DNA of 64,000 nt from Enterobacteria phage vB_EcoM_IME281. This document shows, piece by piece, positions 3,229 through 13,745 of this stretch. The first letter of the stretch is position 1, and each line of letters starts with the position of its first letter. The notes under the pieces were generated by a model that had not been told where the DNA came from, searched no databases, and saw only the letters and a program-made list of their open reading frames with translations. The DNA lies in sequence record MH051913, one strand, 5' to 3'. A program made the translations under genes and the position numbers.

Positions 3229-4112
<884 letters not shown>

Positions 4113-4124
4113 TTTAAAAAAGGT

Positions 4125-4153
4125 GTTTACAAGGTCTATAGACATGATACTAT
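4125..4153 (+). promoter_or_regulatory. early promoter/stem-loop cassette (PeSL-like)
   Basis: GTTTAC, 17-nt spacer, TACTAT; conserved core GATACTATAGGCCTATCAA; palindrome GTCTATAGAC in spacer. Confidence 0.6.
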
Positions 4154-4190
4154 AGGCCTATCAAACCAAACCAACCACATGGAAATCAAA

Positions 4191-4415
4191 ATGAAAACTT
4201 ATCAAGAATTTATTACAGAAGCTAAAAAACACGAAGACCAACTGCCGGTTGTTACAAAAACCTTTGACGGTACATTGGCCGATTTTAAAAAAGTCCCTAG
4301 TGATAGGCTCGCTAAATTGACCGGGAGTATCGGTGAAAAAGATGGCAAGGTCACGTTTTCTGCTCAAGGTACAGCCAATCTTAAAAAACTTTTGAAAGCC
4401 GCTGGCGCAGAATAA
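4191..4415 (+). CDS. internal-protein-like, CTS family (74 aa)
   Basis: MKTYQEFITE|A N-terminus; preceded by early promoter cassette 4125-4153. Confidence 0.6.
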   Translation: MKTYQEFITEAKKHEDQLPVVTKTFDGTLADFKKVPSDRLAKLTGSIGEKDGKVTFSAQGTANLKKLLKAAGAE

Positions 4416-4416
4416 A

Positions 4417-4689
4417 ATGAAAACTTATCAAGAATTTATCGCTGAATCTATTCTTAATGAGGAAGTAAAAATTAACAAATCTGTTAAGACTATGATTGAT
4501 GATATAAATCATCTCTATAACATTGATTTGACTAATCATGTAACTTTAGGCAATAAGCGAAACTTTTTTGTATTTGATACTTCAGAACTTGACCAGAATC
4601 AAATTAACAATATTGAACGTTTTGCTAATGAAAAAGGGTTGCGCCACGAGACGGCTGGTTATAAAAAGTATGCAATTTATTTAAAATAA
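4417..4689 (+). CDS. internal-protein-like, CTS family (90 aa)
   Basis: MKTYQEFIAE|S N-terminus; tandem with two other CTS genes. Confidence 0.6.
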   Translation: MKTYQEFIAESILNEEVKINKSVKTMIDDINHLYNIDLTNHVTLGNKRNFFVFDTSELDQNQINNIERFANEKGLRHETAGYKKYAIYLK

Positions 4690-4691
4690 TT

Positions 4692-4721
4692 GTTTACAAT
4701 GGGCTTTAGTGATGATACTAT
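4692..4721 (+). promoter_or_regulatory. early promoter/stem-loop cassette
   Basis: GTTTAC, 18-nt spacer, TACTAT; GGGCT/AGCCC inverted repeat; conserved leader GAGTGATTGGAGAATAAAATG. Confidence 0.6.
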
Positions 4722-4757
4722 AGCCCTATCAAAACAAATGAGTGATTGGAGAATAAA

Positions 4758-4943
4758 ATGAAACGTTGTGAATTAATTAGAAATGTTACTGCACTGACCG
4801 CCGTTACTGCTTTTGGCTTTAGTATGTTTGCAGGATTCATGTTGGATTTGCTTACAACTTCCGAGAATACAATCTCTTTAGTAGTGGCATTCTTAATTGG
4901 TTCAATCTCTTTCGTTATGGATAAAATCTCTAAAGGTGAATAA
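4758..4943 (+). CDS. small membrane protein (61 aa)
   Basis: Hydrophobic helices; ATG after GGAG in conserved cassette leader (track used TTG at 4746). Confidence 0.5.
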   Translation: MKRCELIRNVTALTAVTAFGFSMFAGFMLDLLTTSENTISLVVAFLIGSISFVMDKISKGE

Positions 4944-5344
4944 TGAACGTTGAATATTATGTATATGCGGATTACGAAAATAATCCGTCTAAAGATGAAG
5001 ATAACCGTTTAGGTGTAGATGCTTTTGAATCCCCTGCAGCGGCATGGCAATGGGTTGAAAGAACTGATATTCCTTACCGTTATATTGAAGTTGTCGACCA
5101 CGCAGGAAACAAGTATCCTAAGGAAGCATATGTTCCTTCCGGAAAGGTAAATTTCCTTTTGTTTGCGGGTGATAATTATTATCCACGCGGCGGGTATACT
5201 GATTTAATCGCTAAAGCCTTCTCTGAAGATGAACTGCGCGATATCATTAAAGAAAACGAGAATAAGCCTCTTTACGGTTCTAATCGTTTTGGCTGGTGGC
5301 AGATTGTTAATGCCAATACCCACACTATTGTAGACGAGGGTTAA
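4943..5344 (+). CDS. hypothetical protein (133 aa)
   Basis: ORF track; ATGA stop/start coupling; no motif recognised. Confidence 0.5.
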   Translation: MNVEYYVYADYENNPSKDEDNRLGVDAFESPAAAWQWVERTDIPYRYIEVVDHAGNKYPKEAYVPSGKVNFLLFAGDNYYPRGGYTDLIAKAFSEDELRDIIKENENKPLYGSNRFGWWQIVNANTHTIVDEG

Positions 5345-6509: not shown

Positions 6510-6583
6510 GGCCCTGTAGCTGGACGGTCAAGCGAGCGACTCATAATCGCTGGATGGTGGTTCGATTCCACCCAGGGCCACCA
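6510..6583 (+). tRNA. tRNA with CAT anticodon (Met or Ile2/lysidine)
   Basis: Hand-folded cloverleaf: acceptor GGCCCTG/CAGGGCC, anticodon stem AGCGA/TCGCT with loop CTCATAA, T-arm GGTGG-TTCGATT-CCACC, encoded CCA. Confidence 0.8.
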
Positions 6584-6587
6584 ATTT

Positions 6588-6662
6588 GGATGTGTAGCTC
6601 AGCGGTAGAGCAGTTGACTGTTAATCAATTGGTCCATGGTTCGAATCCATGCATGTCCGCCA
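6588..6662 (+). tRNA. tRNA-Asn (GTT anticodon)
   Basis: Hand-folded: D-stem GCTC/GAGC, anticodon loop CTGTTAA, T-arm CATGG-TTCGAAT-CCATG, acceptor with two G-U pairs, encoded CCA. Confidence 0.7.
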
Positions 6663-6666
6663 AATA

Positions 6667-6742
6667 CGAGGCATAGCTCAGAAGGAAGAGCAACGGTCTT
6701 CTAAACCGTAGGTCGTAGGTTCGATCCCTACTGTCTCGACCA
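6667..6742 (+). tRNA. tRNA-Arg (TCT anticodon)
   Basis: Hand-folded: D-stem GCTC/GAGC, anticodon stem ACGGT/ACCGT with loop CTTCTAA, T-loop TTCGATC, encoded CCA; T4 also encodes tRNA-Arg(UCU). Confidence 0.8.
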
Positions 6743-9066: not shown

Positions 9067-9096
9067 GTTTACATCCCTCAGAGGACAGGGTATAAT
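9067..9096 (+). promoter_or_regulatory. early promoter with hairpin
   Basis: GTTTAC, 18 nt, TATAAT; GAGGACA/TGTCCTC inverted repeat. Confidence 0.55.
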
Positions 9097-9780: not shown

Positions 9781-10323
9781 ATGAGTTTATATGACGACCT
9801 GATATCAAATATTGATTGGTTTAAGCATAGTGGTCTTTCACATGAAACTAATTCAGTTCTTTATAGAATTCGCCAAGACTTAGGTTATTCCAATGATTTC
9901 TTAAGTCGAACAAATAGCCGTGGATACACTAGCAAATTACCTTTTATCTTTGCTTTAGCTGAGGACCTTTCTTTTGCAGAAGCTTTAGAAATTATTGACT
10001 TAAATCTGGGTATTCAACGAGTGGAATTCGCTGGATTATGCTATTCAGTATACGCTTTAAATGAACCGAGTGATTGTAAACAGCTTGTTGATGCTGACGA
10101 TGATTACCATTTAGTATGCTATTTGATGTTAGAAAATGGTGACCACTTTGGTATGGTCGACCGCCGCCCGAGTTATTCGGATATTAAAAATTACGATAAA
10201 GATGAGCTTATTATTTTGGCTAATGAGTATACATCAGAGATTCGAAAACAACAACGGAAGCTTAATCGTTTTATTGCTGAATGTCGCGAATACGCTAAAG
10301 AGGTTCAAAATGGAGCGGCCTAG
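9781..10323 (+). CDS. hypothetical protein (180 aa) with C-terminal FIAEC motif
   Basis: ORF track; C-terminal RFIAECREY resembles FIKEC tails of 10310 and 14739 products. Confidence 0.5.
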   Translation: MSLYDDLISNIDWFKHSGLSHETNSVLYRIRQDLGYSNDFLSRTNSRGYTSKLPFIFALAEDLSFAEALEIIDLNLGIQRVEFAGLCYSVYALNEPSDCKQLVDADDDYHLVCYLMLENGDHFGMVDRRPSYSDIKNYDKDELIILANEYTSEIRKQQRKLNRFIAECREYAKEVQNGAA

Positions 10324-10663
10324 TCTTTCATCACATGTTTATCAATTGACTGAATATGATATTGGTGCCAATTTATTATTAGGGATTGTTACAGCCATGC
10401 TTGGTGGCTTAATTGGCCTGGTAATGACCGTGGTTATGGCTGTAATCGAAGGAGTCACACCTATTGAGATGGGGTTCTATATGATAATCGCTCCGGCAGT
10501 TGTGGCCTATTTTATCCCTGTTGTGTATGATATTTGCCATACAAACGCTTTGAATGCTCCAATCCGTAAGAGATATGCTTTAGAGATGGCTAATTATAAT
10601 GAGTATGTAAATCAAACTAAACGTAATGACCTTGAAATCTTTATTAAGGAATGTAAATCATGA
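10310..10663 (+). CDS. membrane protein (117 aa) with C-terminal FIKECKS
   Basis: M59 of track ORF 10136, AGAGG RBS; two hydrophobic helices; ATGA coupling to next gene. Confidence 0.5.
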   Translation: MERPSLSSHVYQLTEYDIGANLLLGIVTAMLGGLIGLVMTVVMAVIEGVTPIEMGFYMIIAPAVVAYFIPVVYDICHTNALNAPIRKRYALEMANYNEYVNQTKRNDLEIFIKECKS

Positions 10664-10950
10664 ATAAAATTGAAATTGAAATCCCAGAACACAACGACGA
10701 GAAATCTGCAGAAAAGGCTATCTATGCTCTTCTGAATAAAGTGAATACCATCGAACATGAATGTGAAGCTATTGCCGATAAGTATGGTATCCAATTCGGT
10801 ACCGGTGATTATGGTTCAGGCCGTACATATTATCCTGTCGGTTATGAATGCTCCCAGTGGTTTAAAGATGAAATTGAAAACAACGGCGGTGAAGTTGAAA
10901 ATGGTGTCGTTACAGTTGGTGCTTGGGTCTCCTCTTCGGCAATGTGCTAA
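10660..10950 (+). CDS. small protein, WVSSS-C tandem paralog 1 (96 aa)
   Basis: Ends GAWVSSSAMC; first of five tandem paralogs. Confidence 0.55.
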   Translation: MNKIEIEIPEHNDEKSAEKAIYALLNKVNTIEHECEAIADKYGIQFGTGDYGSGRTYYPVGYECSQWFKDEIENNGGEVENGVVTVGAWVSSSAMC

Positions 10951-10959
10951 GGAAACGCT

Positions 10960-11241
10960 ATGATGAATGATTACCGTAAAAATAAAGAGCTGGCTGAAGC
11001 AGTAAATGATATTCATAAAGCTATTCGTCGTGCTGAGGAAATTGCAGACAAATATGAGACTCATTTTAATATATACCCTGCTCGCGGTATGGGCGGTGAC
11101 TATTATTCTCCTGGCGCCCTGAAAGCCGACCTTGCTCACTGGGAAGAATACGGTGAAGCTCAGTACGCTATTGTAAACCAACATGATTACACTACCAGCC
11201 TAGAAAATGGTGGATGGGTATCCTCTTCTTCTGAATGTTAA
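10960..11241 (+). CDS. small protein, WVSSS-C tandem paralog 2 (93 aa)
   Basis: Ends GGWVSSSSEC; shares ADKY motif with paralog 1. Confidence 0.55.
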   Translation: MMNDYRKNKELAEAVNDIHKAIRRAEEIADKYETHFNIYPARGMGGDYYSPGALKADLAHWEEYGEAQYAIVNQHDYTTSLENGGWVSSSSEC

Positions 11242-11250
11242 GGAATTATT

Positions 11251-11448
11251 ATGTCTCGTGAACTAGATTGTGCAATCCGTACTGCCGCGGCGGCTATTGA
11301 AAACGTTATCCAGATTTGCAAAGAAGAACGTGAAGAAGCTGATATCTATATCGATGGTCAACGTGACCTGGAACGTCATATCACGCTTTATAACGGTTGT
11401 ATTACTATTAGTGGTACCTCTTGGGTGTCCTCCTCTTACGAATGCTAA
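11251..11448 (+). CDS. small protein, WVSSS-C tandem paralog 3 (65 aa)
   Basis: Ends TSWVSSSYEC; TAAGGA stop/RBS junction. Confidence 0.55.
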   Translation: MSRELDCAIRTAAAAIENVIQICKEEREEADIYIDGQRDLERHITLYNGCITISGTSWVSSSYEC

Positions 11449-11457
11449 GGAAATAAA

Positions 11458-11667
11458 ATGACTATTGATGAAATTGAAAAACAAATCCGTGAATTAGTAC
11501 GTAAAGGTCAGTCCGTGGCTGACGAAACAGGTCAGCACTTCCACGCCGGCGGCGAAGAATATATTCCAGCTTCTAGTCCGGAATATGGCGATTACGAATG
11601 GGCCCGTGATGATTACGGTATTCCTGAAGGTGAAGGTTTCTGGTTTAGCTCCTCTATGTCTTGCTAA
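11458..11667 (+). CDS. small protein, WVSSS-C tandem paralog 4 (69 aa)
   Basis: Ends GFWFSSSMSC. Confidence 0.55.
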   Translation: MTIDEIEKQIRELVRKGQSVADETGQHFHAGGEEYIPASSPEYGDYEWARDDYGIPEGEGFWFSSSMSC

Positions 11668-11677
11668 GGTGATAAAA

Positions 11678-11902
11678 ATGACTGATATTAATGAATTAGA
11701 AAAAGCGGCACTTGAACTGGCTGCACTGTATAAGAAAGTAAAAGATATGGCTTCTGCTCAGGATTTTGGTGTTGAGCTCGACGATTATGACGGTGAAGTT
11801 CGTCTCGAAGATTGGCTGAATAGTTCTTGTTATGGTGAAGAAGCTGGTCGTACCTTCGTTGCTCGTGCCGATGGTAAAATCTGGTACCCAAGCTCATGCT
11901 AA
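11678..11902 (+). CDS. small protein, WVSSS-C tandem paralog 5 (74 aa)
   Basis: M32 of track ORF 11585; ends KIWYPSSC. Confidence 0.5.
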   Translation: MTDINELEKAALELAALYKKVKDMASAQDFGVELDDYDGEVRLEDWLNSSCYGEEAGRTFVARADGKIWYPSSC

Positions 11903-12123
11903 AATTGAAAAAACGATACATTCGTAAAATAAATGGTCTTCGCGATTATGCCAAAGGTTGGCCACTAAGTATTATTATGGCTGATAGACACCCACGTTAT
12001 AATACTGAGATGACTTATTACAAAAAGTACGATTCATATTGTCGGTCTAAAGCGGGTCGTTTAGATGGTTCTTATGAGGACTATTTTGGTAAAAAACCTA
12101 CTCGTGTTTCGTTAGGAAAATAA
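11896..12123 (+). CDS. hypothetical basic protein (75 aa)
   Basis: ORF track; start unclear. Confidence 0.3.
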   Translation: MLKLKKRYIRKINGLRDYAKGWPLSIIMADRHPRYNTEMTYYKKYDSYCRSKAGRLDGSYEDYFGKKPTRVSLGK

Positions 12124-12153
12124 TTTAACCACATGGATGTGATAGGAGGACTT

Positions 12154-12483
12154 ATGCATAAAGATTCAGTATTCAAATATCTTTTGAAAACAGATAAAGA
12201 ATTCTATATGAATGGGCAAGCTTTCTTGTTCGTTCGTGGTAAACGTGAGATGTTTTACAAATGCGACCTCTCAATGCACCATCATATGTATCACACCCAT
12301 GGCGAGCCTATACTGGGGTTCTCTGGTGACGAAACTAGACGTATAGCTATGTACTACGACCATTTTAAGCTCAATGATTGTGGTGACAACGCTTTGGTCT
12401 GGAATCCATCTTGGCGTCGTTGGGATACGGTAGACAACGATAAATTATTTTTAGAATATTGCAGAAGTGATGTACAGCTCTAA
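12154..12483 (+). CDS. hypothetical protein (109 aa)
   Basis: ATG after AGGAGGA RBS. Confidence 0.5.
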   Translation: MHKDSVFKYLLKTDKEFYMNGQAFLFVRGKREMFYKCDLSMHHHMYHTHGEPILGFSGDETRRIAMYYDHFKLNDCGDNALVWNPSWRRWDTVDNDKLFLEYCRSDVQL

Positions 12484-12526
12484 AAATACGTGTTACTATT
12501 ACCCTACACAAACATGAGGAGAACAT

Positions 12527-12766
12527 ATGTGGTATTACGCTCCGATGTCCGATAAGTCTAATGAACCGGTACGCATTACTCGTGCCAAGTTTAAAAAGAT
12601 TTATGGCTTTGCTTATAAGAAGTCTGATTACGGTGTTCGTTTTGAAGATGCTCACTGTATCAATGATCCTTATGCAGAAGAAATCTCTAATGAGATAATT
12701 CCTATCGTTGAGAGTAATTCCAATGATATGTGGGAATTACATAATACTTACGTTGCCGAAATTTAA
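12527..12766 (+). CDS. hypothetical protein (79 aa)
   Basis: GAGGAG RBS. Confidence 0.5.
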   Translation: MWYYAPMSDKSNEPVRITRAKFKKIYGFAYKKSDYGVRFEDAHCINDPYAEEISNEIIPIVESNSNDMWELHNTYVAEI

Positions 12767-12785: not shown

Positions 12786-13745
12786 ATGATGCTAGTTATT
12801 GGTTCTCGTGCACTGCACCACGCAGGTCTGATTGAAAATAAGTATATCGAAAATTCTGATTGGGATTTCATTGCCGACCAAGGCTCATGGAACCACTTTA
12901 AAGCTCGGATGTTCGGCGCCCATGTACACGTTGACAATCCTGATGTTCAGGCTTTCAAATGTATGCATAATGGTAAAGAAACCTATTTCGAAGCTTATAT
13001 CGTCCGTGCCCTGACTAATGTACGAGAAATTACCGGTGAGCTCCAAGATGAAGACTACACCTCAAGCTATCGTCTCCTGAAATATGCTGAAAATCATATT
13101 AAAAAGGACCGTCTTACAGGTTTCTATTGGGCGACGCCTGATATCTGTCTGGCTATCAAAACCTCTCATCGTTTCCTGAAGAATAATCCGTTCTTCTTGA
13201 AAACTATGTCCCACATCAAATACCTTCGTAATAAAGGTATCACCCTGAATGAAGAACTCCGGGAAATTATGCTGCAACGTCAAAAAGAAACGTTGAGCTA
13301 TTCCCATCCTAAATTGGATGTAAACAAATCATCGTTCTTTAATGATACCATTTATACGCTAGACCATGACTCCATCCATGAAGCAGTAGCATTGGCAGGG
13401 CGTCCTGCATATACCTTTTATATGAAGGAAGGTTCTGAAGTCATGACCTCTCGTGAGAAGTTCGAGGCTTTGCCTGAAGCTATTAAATTGGCTGGTGTGT
13501 ATGAAGAAACTTGTGTCCTGGCACTAGAACGTTCACAGGTTCCTAATGACTTCAATATTTCACCATCATTAAGTTTCTATATGGCTCTTGAGAAAGTGTG
13601 TACCTCAATCACTTCAGGTTGGTTCCGTGAGTACGCCTGGGAAAACTACCAAGCTGTGGTTAATATGTACAAGACTTTAGGTGAAAACGACTACATCAAA
13701 CGATTCCAAGACAACCATCATTTAATTCGTCCTTTCGAAAAATAA
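12786..13745 (+). CDS. hypothetical protein (319 aa), possible nucleotidyltransferase-like N-terminus
   Basis: GAGGAAAA RBS; N-terminal IGSRAL..DWDF loosely resembles GS..DxD NTase motif with long spacer; weak. Confidence 0.45.
   Translation: MMLVIGSRALHHAGLIENKYIENSDWDFIADQGSWNHFKARMFGAHVHVDNPDVQAFKCMHNGKETYFEAYIVRALTNVREITGELQDEDYTSSYRLLKYAENHIKKDRLTGFYWATPDICLAIKTSHRFLKNNPFFLKTMSHIKYLRNKGITLNEELREIMLQRQKETLSYSHPKLDVNKSSFFNDTIYTLDHDSIHEAVALAGRPAYTFYMKEGSEVMTSREKFEALPEAIKLAGVYEETCVLALERSQVPNDFNISPSLSFYMALEKVCTSITSGWFREYAWENYQAVVNMYKTLGENDYIKRFQDNHHLIRPFEK

Follow-up and report, generated by a model that had tools for sequence, protein, structure and literature searches.

Small phage proteins sharing a W-x-x-S-S-x-x-C tail are linked to a predicted nucleotidyltransferase and probably form with it a two-part system

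Introduction

In a 64,000-nucleotide stretch of Enterobacteria phage vB_EcoM_IME281 (sequence record MH051913; this whole stretch is called the window below), five consecutive and tightly packed plus-strand open reading frames (ORFs) occupy positions 10660-11902 and encode proteins of 96, 93, 65, 69 and 74 amino acids. Why would a phage keep several small proteins that all end in the same way, and what is the shared ending for? An initial annotation, made from the letters of the window, had described five ORFs of 65-96 amino acids with near-identical tails and Cys as the last residue, and had taken them for host-interaction or anti-defence genes. All of its coordinates and endings were reproduced, and the ADKY and DYG/DYY motifs that it pointed out in copies 1 and 2 are real; it was silent on the internal WLNSSC motif of copy 5 and on the linkage of the array to a downstream gene for a predicted nucleotidyltransferase (NTase). 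In its light, the question is no longer what small effectors do on their own but how they partner an enzyme. Array and NTase probably constitute one undescribed two-part system, and the explanation that we favour, with a rough probability of 0.35, is that the small acidic proteins act with the NTase and that their tail docks in it, most likely as a serine acceptor. The genes concerned are the following.

10660..10950, plus strand: copy 1, 96 amino acids, type A, with a helix, IADKYG-x-F and a GDYGSGRTYYP loop; ends in GAWVSSSAMC
10960..11241, plus strand: copy 2, 93 amino acids, type A, with IADKYE and GGDYYSP; ends in GGWVSSSSEC
11251..11448, plus strand: copy 3, 65 amino acids, minimal type C, with a helix and short strands; ends in TSWVSSSYEC
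11458..11667, plus strand: copy 4, 69 amino acids, short type A, with GGEEYIP; the most divergent copy; ends in GFWFSSSMSC
11678..11902, plus strand: copy 5, 74 amino acids from the ATG at 11678, type B with two motifs; the most conserved copy; ends in KIWYPSSC
12786..13745, plus strand: partner gene, 319 amino acids, DUF7277 plus DUF7275, about 0.9 kb downstream of the array

Linkage of the tail genes to a nucleotidyltransferase gene

A DUF7275 homologue follows tail genes in phages SP18, APCEc01, PG7, Aes012 and SYP. APCEc01 (Mosigvirus) carries three tail copies and PG7 (Karamvirus) two; SYP is a 107-kb Pseudomonas siphophage with a tail gene and the NTase, and in Aes012 the pair adjoins nrdD, not the e region, with thioredoxin/glutaredoxin genes on the other side. 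The association was measured in two directions. In the forward test, the IMG/VR database was searched with the DUF7275 alignment alone, which yielded 80 diverse viral loci. At least one tail-ended ORF (1-6 per locus) was found by pattern in 78 of them, and a 79th, L057, has a variant tail, WDSSTC, that was recognised by eye; the single locus without a tail ORF is L029, a T4-like contig of 165,540 bp (IMGVR_UViG_650627040_000001). Among 13,226 candidate segments, 190 of the 199 tail ORFs lie at most 2.6 kb upstream of the NTase gene on the same strand, and all-against-all clustering of the neighbours in the 80 loci left the tail families as the only ones conserved across lineages. In the reverse test, 13 loci were found solely by a degenerate DNA pattern for YGMGGTYYP; the DUF7275 gene is immediately downstream in 10 of these, and the other three end on that side. 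The tail genes directly adjoin the NTase gene in most other phages, and three distant metagenomic members, whose replication-gene contexts are unrelated to one another, precede a DUF7277/7275 gene by 15-50 nt. Since this linkage persists through complete turnover of the surrounding genes, in T4-like phages, jumbo phages, siphophages and metagenomic phages, synteny alone is not the explanation. Such a near-obligate linkage is what makes the tail genes and the NTase, as far as gene order can tell, probably one system.

The exceptions all lie on one side. The close homologues of L029 and of Stenotrophomonas phage IME-SM1 (L111) retain all conserved residues of the NTase with no tail ORF in their flanks, which makes them natural 'enzyme-only' controls, and distant DUF7275 homologues (25-30% identity) also occur without a tail gene. 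The small proteins, by comparison, were never seen without the NTase in the loci examined, so that the dependence appears to be one-way, of the small proteins on the enzyme and not the reverse. Neither the small family nor the NTase was matched in hidden Markov model scans that covered the complete T4 genome; T4 nrdC.3 (308 amino acids), which lies beside nrd genes as the pair does in Aes012, had been considered as an NTase homologue and was discarded, as these scans matched neither family. No more than three loci turned up in 100,044 representative bacterial and archaeal genomes; they are on metagenome-assembled contigs of 73-87 kb, and the small partner is upstream in all three.

The small proteins themselves belong to a family that had been catalogued before. 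Copies 1, 2, 4 and 5 match PHROG 899 (E 1.4e-23, 5.5e-21, 1.9e-12 and 6.4e-10, respectively) and copy 3 matches PHROG 4882 (E 9.7e-37), both listed as of unknown function; the proteins RB69ORF139c and PHG31ORF064c are members of the same family. A literature search by family names, DUF numbers and RB69 ORF names found no paper on the family, the tail motif or the NTase linkage; the family is thus already catalogued, and the linkage and the tail motif are undescribed in the literature found. An exhaustive profile search (E up to 1e-3) gathered 266 clusters at 50% identity, and a second search 729 clusters at 90% identity. Copy 1 matches 391 of about 50,700 phage records. No family member has an informative name or sits on a contig larger than about 400 kb; from its distribution, the family appears old, widespread and phage-restricted.

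The initial annotation had also called the family fast-diverging, which does not hold. The ratio of non-synonymous to synonymous substitution rates (dN/dS, or omega) against orthologues in six related loci is 0.05-0.25 for copy 1, 0.06-0.30 for copy 2, 0-0.18 for copy 3, 0.23-0.32 for copy 4 and 0.01-0.13 for copy 5. Copy 4 shares 57-80% amino-acid identity with its orthologues, and copy 5 is 95-100% identical across Dhakavirus/Gaprivervirus. The low ratios in all five copies indicate real coding genes under purifying selection.

These results bear on another reading of such an array, in which the products would be stand-alone host-interaction or anti-defence proteins, for instance acidic nucleic-acid mimics, and the NTase link would reflect shared regulation or co-inheritance. 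The proteins are indeed small and acidic, they are encoded in the accessory region of a T4-like genome in an early-type promoter context, and their copy number ranges from 0 to 6 among phages. Nevertheless, a linkage that outlives every other neighbour, selection that is purifying and not diversifying, and the lack of any PADLOC, Pfam or fold match to known mimics make this reading distinctly improbable. More precisely, the five window proteins gave only sub-threshold noise against Pfam, NCBIfam and PADLOC, a Protein Data Bank (PDB) sequence search with the family profile gave no match, and the small proteins have no profile or fold match to Ocr/Arn-type acidic mimics or to known anti-phage defence components. 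The earlier statement that the family is not a recognised one is therefore upheld for Pfam, NCBIfam, PADLOC and the PDB, the PHROGs being of unknown function.

The partner enzyme

The AlphaFold2 model of the NTase is of high confidence (predicted local distance difference test, pLDDT, 92; predicted template modelling score, pTM, 0.85), and the closest solved folds are those of the toxins MenT1, MenT3 and MenT4. The protein has the hG[GS]-x(9-20)-Dh[DE]h motif of pol-beta enzymes, with a third carboxylate that falls on a later strand of a predicted alpha/beta NTase fold. This signature, G6-S7...D25-x-D27...E69 (D25-W-D27 in the window), is fully invariant in a 32-sequence alignment. Among 98 partner-bearing NTases, G6 and S7 are present in 96 and D25 and D27 in 97, while position 69 is Glu in 93 and, by a conservative change, Asp in five; the remaining rows are gapped, and every full-length enzyme keeps the signature. 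With an omega of 0.03-0.07 and an intact catalytic motif, the enzyme looks catalytically competent from its sequence. Numerous His, Asp, Glu, Lys and Arg residues of the helical DUF7275 half are invariant as well. No Pfam NTase family was matched by sequence, RlaP (PF10127) and PolyA_pol (PF01743) being absent even at E 10 with 32 homologues, and a PDB sequence search with the NTase gave no match; the NTase itself matches 732 of the phage records.

Nearly all of the 98 partner-associated NTases keep R165, H174, C272 and R281, four residues that vary in the most distant partner-less homologues. These positions are candidates for contact with the partner, in a conservation pattern that is inseparable from phylogeny. 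Cys243 was considered as a mark of partner-bearing NTases and rejected, as 13 of these have Tyr and four have Met at this position.

The likeness to MenT toxins raises the possibility that the small proteins are antitoxin-like inhibitors or regulators, which would bind a MenT-like NTase and block or tune its activity, the NTase being the effector that acts on tRNA or RNA 3' ends. Inhibition could proceed through the N-terminal helix and/or through the tail as a pseudo-substrate whose terminal thiolate and carboxylate chelate the catalytic metals. The precedent is MenA1, a 68-amino-acid protein encoded upstream of MenT1 in Mycobacterium tuberculosis, the helix of which occludes the MenT1 active site (PMC10435456). 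The phage module resembles MenAT and AbiE in that a small cognate protein is encoded immediately upstream in one operon. This antitoxin-first order, a small acidic protein followed by the NTase with gaps of 15-50 nt in minimal cassettes, fits an inhibitor; so do the long predicted N-terminal helix of the small proteins and their acidity (isoelectric point, pI, 4.3-4.9), as expected of a protein that occupies an RNA-binding groove. Against it stand several differences from MenAT1. There is no sequence similarity on either the enzyme or the partner side, the small proteins resembling neither MenA1 nor COG5340 antitoxins, and the phage enzyme, with 319 amino acids and DUF7277/7275, is not DUF1814 by sequence. 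MenT1 uses a T39-x-D41 phospho-acceptor, of the [S/T]-x-D type that serves antitoxin-induced auto-phosphorylation in MenT enzymes, where the phage enzyme has a canonical D25-W-D27, a residue equivalence inferred from the motif. The module differs further in its 1-6 paralogous partners against one in MenAT1, in their invariant tail, W-x-x-S-S-x-x-C, which has no counterpart in MenA1, and in being found on phage contigs only. Up to six distinct conserved inhibitors for one enzyme would be unusual, and a lytic phage has little reason to protect its host. Moreover, the close NTase homologues of L029 and IME-SM1 that have no partner argue that the enzyme does not need neutralising. We regard inhibition as possible, if on the unlikely side; were it true, MenT-type toxin control would extend to lytic phages, with a bearing on tRNA-targeting conflicts.

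What the enzyme originally acted upon can be approached through its distant partner-less homologues, the neighbours of which include RNA ligase 2 and a metallophosphoesterase (DSS3_PM1), polynucleotide kinase (BillNye), peptidyl-tRNA hydrolase (Vibrio phage 1.081.O) and tRNA genes (PhinkBoden, DC31). A calcineurin-like phosphoesterase gene also lies directly downstream of the NTase gene in 14 jumbo-phage loci; its product could be an RNA-end-healing partner or could remove the proposed modification.

L106 (DSS3_PM1) 265-1810; L104 (BillNye) 1-810; L108 274-720; L105 4850-5804; L107 4106-4180: RNA-repair-like neighbours of partner-less homologues
L045 6967-7743, and 13 other jumbo-phage loci: metallophosphoesterase, PF00149, E 2e-18

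RlaP (PF10127) and CCA-adding enzymes are pol-beta NTases that add one or two nucleoside monophosphates to damaged RNA 3' ends and have genes for RNA ligase, kinase or phosphatase as neighbours (PMC12776372, PMC7824862). The likeness of the phage enzyme to them, carried by the genomic neighbours of the distant DUF7275 homologues and by the jumbo-phage phosphoesterase, is one of genomic context only, and neither RlaP nor CCA systems have a tail-bearing protein partner. Taken with the MenT fold and the existence of RlaP-type repair enzymes, this anecdotal context points, by analogy, to RNA 3' ends as the ancestral substrate of the NTase.

A C-terminal tail on diverse bodies

If the partner is an enzyme, what do the small proteins offer to it? 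Copies 1-4 end in W-[VF]-S-S-S-x-x-C, and copy 5 carries two related motifs, one of them internal.

10924..10947, plus strand: tail codons W-V-S-S-S-A-M-C of copy 1; equivalents at 11215-11238, 11422-11445 and 11641-11664
11813..11830, plus strand: internal W-L-N-S-S-C of copy 5 (DWLNSSCYGEE); its D-W, C, G and E are shared by the whole type-B alignment
11882..11899, plus strand: terminal W-Y-P-S-S-C of copy 5 (IWYPSSC)

Such endings are rare in the window, where 25 of 1006 six-frame stop-to-stop segments of at least 30 amino acids end in Cys and the C-terminal tail pattern is confined to the five copies. Among 183 homologues gathered by profile and homology searches, independently of any tail pattern, 169 end exactly at the Cys, 168 fit W-x-x-S-S-x-x-C and 30 have two or three W-x-SS motifs within one protein. 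W(-7), S(-4), S(-3) and C(0) are the same in all of 128 distinct type-A tails, and position -5 varies (Ser in 90, Ala in 16, Pro in nine), a count that is partly circular, as the collecting pattern required the Trp, the serine at -3 and the Cys, and allowed only Ser or Thr at -4. In front of the tail, the family consensus consists of an amphipathic helix ending in ...AE-x-IADE-x-G-x-F-x-F, a Gly-rich loop, (A)YGMGGTYYP, and a variable acidic W/Y-rich linker, the chain closing with G-x-W-x-S-S-S-x-x-C. Members are 65-175 amino acids long, with a median pI of 4.5 (4.3-4.9 for the window copies).

Copy 1 is predicted by AlphaFold2 as a compact helix-plus-sheet domain (pLDDT 90, pTM 0.76), with a long helix at residues 14-42, a small sheet, a short helix at 66-74 and W89 in the last strand. 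Its last six residues have a pLDDT of 75 against 95-96 just before, which is consistent with an exposed tail in the modelled structure. This predicted fold has no match among solved structures, and its matches in BFVD are uncharacterised members of the same family (RB69ORF139c and PHG31ORF064c).

The claim that the five genes form a tandem family is upheld. By hhalign profile-profile comparison, the copy-5 type aligns with the main family through the N-terminal helix and the first strand (P 92.6%, E 4.7e-7), and the copy-3 type through 14 tail columns only (P 90.5%, E 1.3e-6). From these alignments, copies 1, 2, 4 and 5 (PHROG 899) are related through the protein body and all five through the tail, which is the only link of copy 3 (PHROG 4882). 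Similar tails, such as ...AWCSSSMSC, ...DWDSSSMYC, ...NWDSSTC and the variant ...GWISSSICW, are also observed on longer proteins of 139-172 amino acids with unrelated N-terminal parts. These, too, are encoded in the arrays ahead of the NTase gene, and Pfam recognises none of them.

L047 4177-4608 and 4612-5052; L060 3807-4259; L057 5203-5718: longer tail-bearing proteins

As judged by these comparisons, the tail is the only feature common to all partner types, and it behaves like a portable tag that is carried on mutually non-matching bodies (types A, B and C and the 139-172-amino-acid proteins) and is sometimes repeated.

A portable tag on diversified bodies would also suit targeting adaptors, in which the tail anchors the protein to the NTase and the variable body directs the enzyme to an RNA species or a host protein, the array being a set of specificity subunits. 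Several non-redundant paralogues do stand beside one enzyme, types A and B occur together in 32 of the 80 loci, and the partner-less homologues show that the enzyme is autonomous and its partners are add-ons. Yet an eight-residue tail with an invariant Ser-Ser-Cys is odd as a pure anchor, acidic bodies are unlikely RNA binders, and Pfam and fold searches recognised no target-binding domain, so that we consider adaptors unlikely.

Alternatively, the tail could be a chemical cofactor site that has nothing to do with nucleotidyl transfer, such as a lanthionine-type cross-link, a redox or persulfide Cys, or an inter-subunit metal site. The spacing Ser(-5..-3)...Cys(0) of type A is compatible with lanthionine ring sizes; the several diverged small ORFs with a Ser/Cys-containing C-terminal motif next to a single enzyme gene recall the precursor arrays of ribosomally synthesised and post-translationally modified peptides (RiPPs); and the module of Aes012 lies between nrdD and the thioredoxin/glutaredoxin genes. 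In type B, however, the Ser-Ser pair is directly next to the Cys, too close for a ring. The products, of 65-170 amino acids, are predicted to be folded, as copy 1 is, instead of leader-core peptides, and neither LanB/LanM/LanKC nor a radical-SAM or other RiPP enzyme is encoded nearby in the window. The lanthionine/RiPP reading was rejected on these three grounds, namely the missing maturase, the predicted folds and the misfit of type-B spacing. As for a metal site, no second conserved Cys or His was found in the alignments of the small-protein family. Cofactor chemistry at the tail is thereby highly improbable as a whole.

A simpler origin of the terminal Cys was considered at the DNA level. 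At the four internal junctions of the array, the sequence reads TG(C/T)-TAA-GG(A/T), followed after 5-8 nt by the ATG of the next copy, which bears out the ribosome-binding site that the initial annotation had placed after each stop. The junctions together form a DNA repeat of 29-47 nt with 64-77% identity.

10924..10970, plus strand: junction repeat, comprising tail codons, TAA, GGA Shine-Dalgarno sequence and next ATG; also at 11215-11261 and 11422-11468, and shorter at 11649-11677

An overlapping Shine-Dalgarno constraint does not account for the Cys, which is no less invariant where a single-copy cassette has no paralogue downstream, and this explanation was rejected. The repeat may matter for copy number instead. 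The close relative L008 (97% NTase identity) has at 4075-5114 a four-gene array that lacks copy 3 and is otherwise syntenic; copy number has thus changed recently between the two, plausibly by way of the 29-47-nt junction repeats.

The tail as a candidate acceptor

In the explanation that we favour, the element shared by the partners would be an exposed C-terminal tail, W-x-x-S-S-(x-x)-C-COOH, that docks in the NTase and presents an aromatic residue and two adjacent hydroxyls end-on, like an RNA 3' end. A serine of the tail would then receive a nucleotidyl or phosphoryl group, and the divergent bodies (types A, B and C, and the longer ones elsewhere) would give each modified paralogue its own role in early infection. 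An acceptor role is favoured by the portability of the tag, by the position of the hydroxyls beside an aromatic residue at a free chain end, and by a precedent, since MenT1 auto-phosphorylates T39 and MenT-fold active sites are thus able to phosphorylate protein Ser/Thr (PMC11375011).

In its general plan, the module recalls other pairs in which an NTase with a G-S...D-x-D motif is encoded adjacent to the gene of a small cognate protein, that is, MntA-HepT (type VII toxin-antitoxin), GlnD-PII and GlnE-glutamine synthetase. In these pairs the NTase acts on its cognate protein, GlnD, GlnE and MntA being pol-beta-fold NTases that modify partner proteins. Their partners come from families unrelated to the phage small proteins, and the acceptors are Tyr residues in loops, as against the candidate Ser-Ser pair in the C-terminal tail of the phage proteins. 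By analogy, the module would be most like NTase-plus-cognate-small-protein pairs (MenAT1, MntA-HepT, GlnD-PII) in operation. A more specific proposal, tentative and a little less probable than docking as an acceptor in general, is that of a phage protein O-nucleotidylylation or phosphorylation system, in which the MenT-like NTase loads nucleotides on the tag serines of small effector or carrier proteins. The tandem paralogues would then give one enzyme several outputs.

Several points weigh against the tail being an acceptor. To our knowledge, pol-beta-fold protein nucleotidylyltransferases modify Tyr and not Ser. The Cys lies at W+7 in type A and at W+5 in type B, which is awkward for one rigid binding mode, and the invariant W-S-S-C might alternatively serve the structure, or the binding of a metal or a host factor. 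Some phages have the NTase without a partner, and the RNA-repair-type genes beside the distant homologues suggest that its primary substrate is RNA rather than protein.

A C-terminal tag of eight residues that is invariant and linked to one enzyme offers a directly testable hypothesis. If the tail is an acceptor, it would represent a novel type of protein modification as well as a new viral route to effector diversification; O-nucleotidylylation, in particular, would add to virus biology a tag-directed modification of proteins that is new, and possibly a protein-primed oligonucleotide. Whether the small proteins are acceptors or inhibitors, hundreds of 'hypothetical' genes and two Pfam DUFs would gain an annotation. 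The module is common, and it is present in therapeutic-type coliphages (Dhakavirus, Mosigvirus, Gaprivervirus), in T4-like phages of Klebsiella, Enterobacter, Acinetobacter and Aeromonas, and in jumbo phages.

Genomic setting and expression

The window is that of a Dhakavirus-type T4-like phage, and positions 10300-12200 share 97-98% identity with Salmonella phage SHP1 and Escherichia phage AnYang, and 91% with JS98. The array sits in the hyperplastic e.2-e.4 region, as the initial annotation had surmised in assigning it to an accessory region of a T4-like phage. In Shigella phage SP18, five counterparts annotated as hypothetical lie between an e.4-like membrane-protein gene and e.2/nudE/e (lysozyme); T4 has only e.3 at this position. 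The window also has a tRNA cluster at 6510-6742 (Met-CAT, Asn-GTT, Arg-TCT), 4 kb upstream of the array. The features around the array are as follows.

9068..9096, plus strand: best sigma-70-like early-type promoter match, TTTACA-17-TATAAT, 11/12, ahead of an e.6-like gene and upstream of the run of genes that includes the array; a consensus match only
10310-10663: 117-amino-acid predicted membrane protein, PHROG 2330; its end overlaps the first 4 nt of copy 1 (ATGA)
11896-12123, 12133-12483 and 12527-12766, plus strand: small genes between the array and the NTase gene, PHROGs 7065, 9796 and 3723, all of unknown function

The array genes are packed with strong Shine-Dalgarno sequences, and a consensus search found no late-promoter box (TATAAATA) between 7574 and 16002. 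Together with the early-type promoter match, this arrangement makes early co-transcription of the array and the NTase likely, on sequence grounds. The membrane-protein gene directly ahead of the array is listed as an ORF of 175 amino acids from 10136, and its true start is probably the internal ATG at 10310. The three small genes downstream (11896-12766) belong to the same operon and lie outside the conserved module, being lineage-specific and absent or replaced in related loci. At 11896-11902, the ATG of the first of them (11896-12123) overlaps the last codons and the stop of copy 5 (TCATGCTAA), an overlap that suggests translational coupling out of the array.

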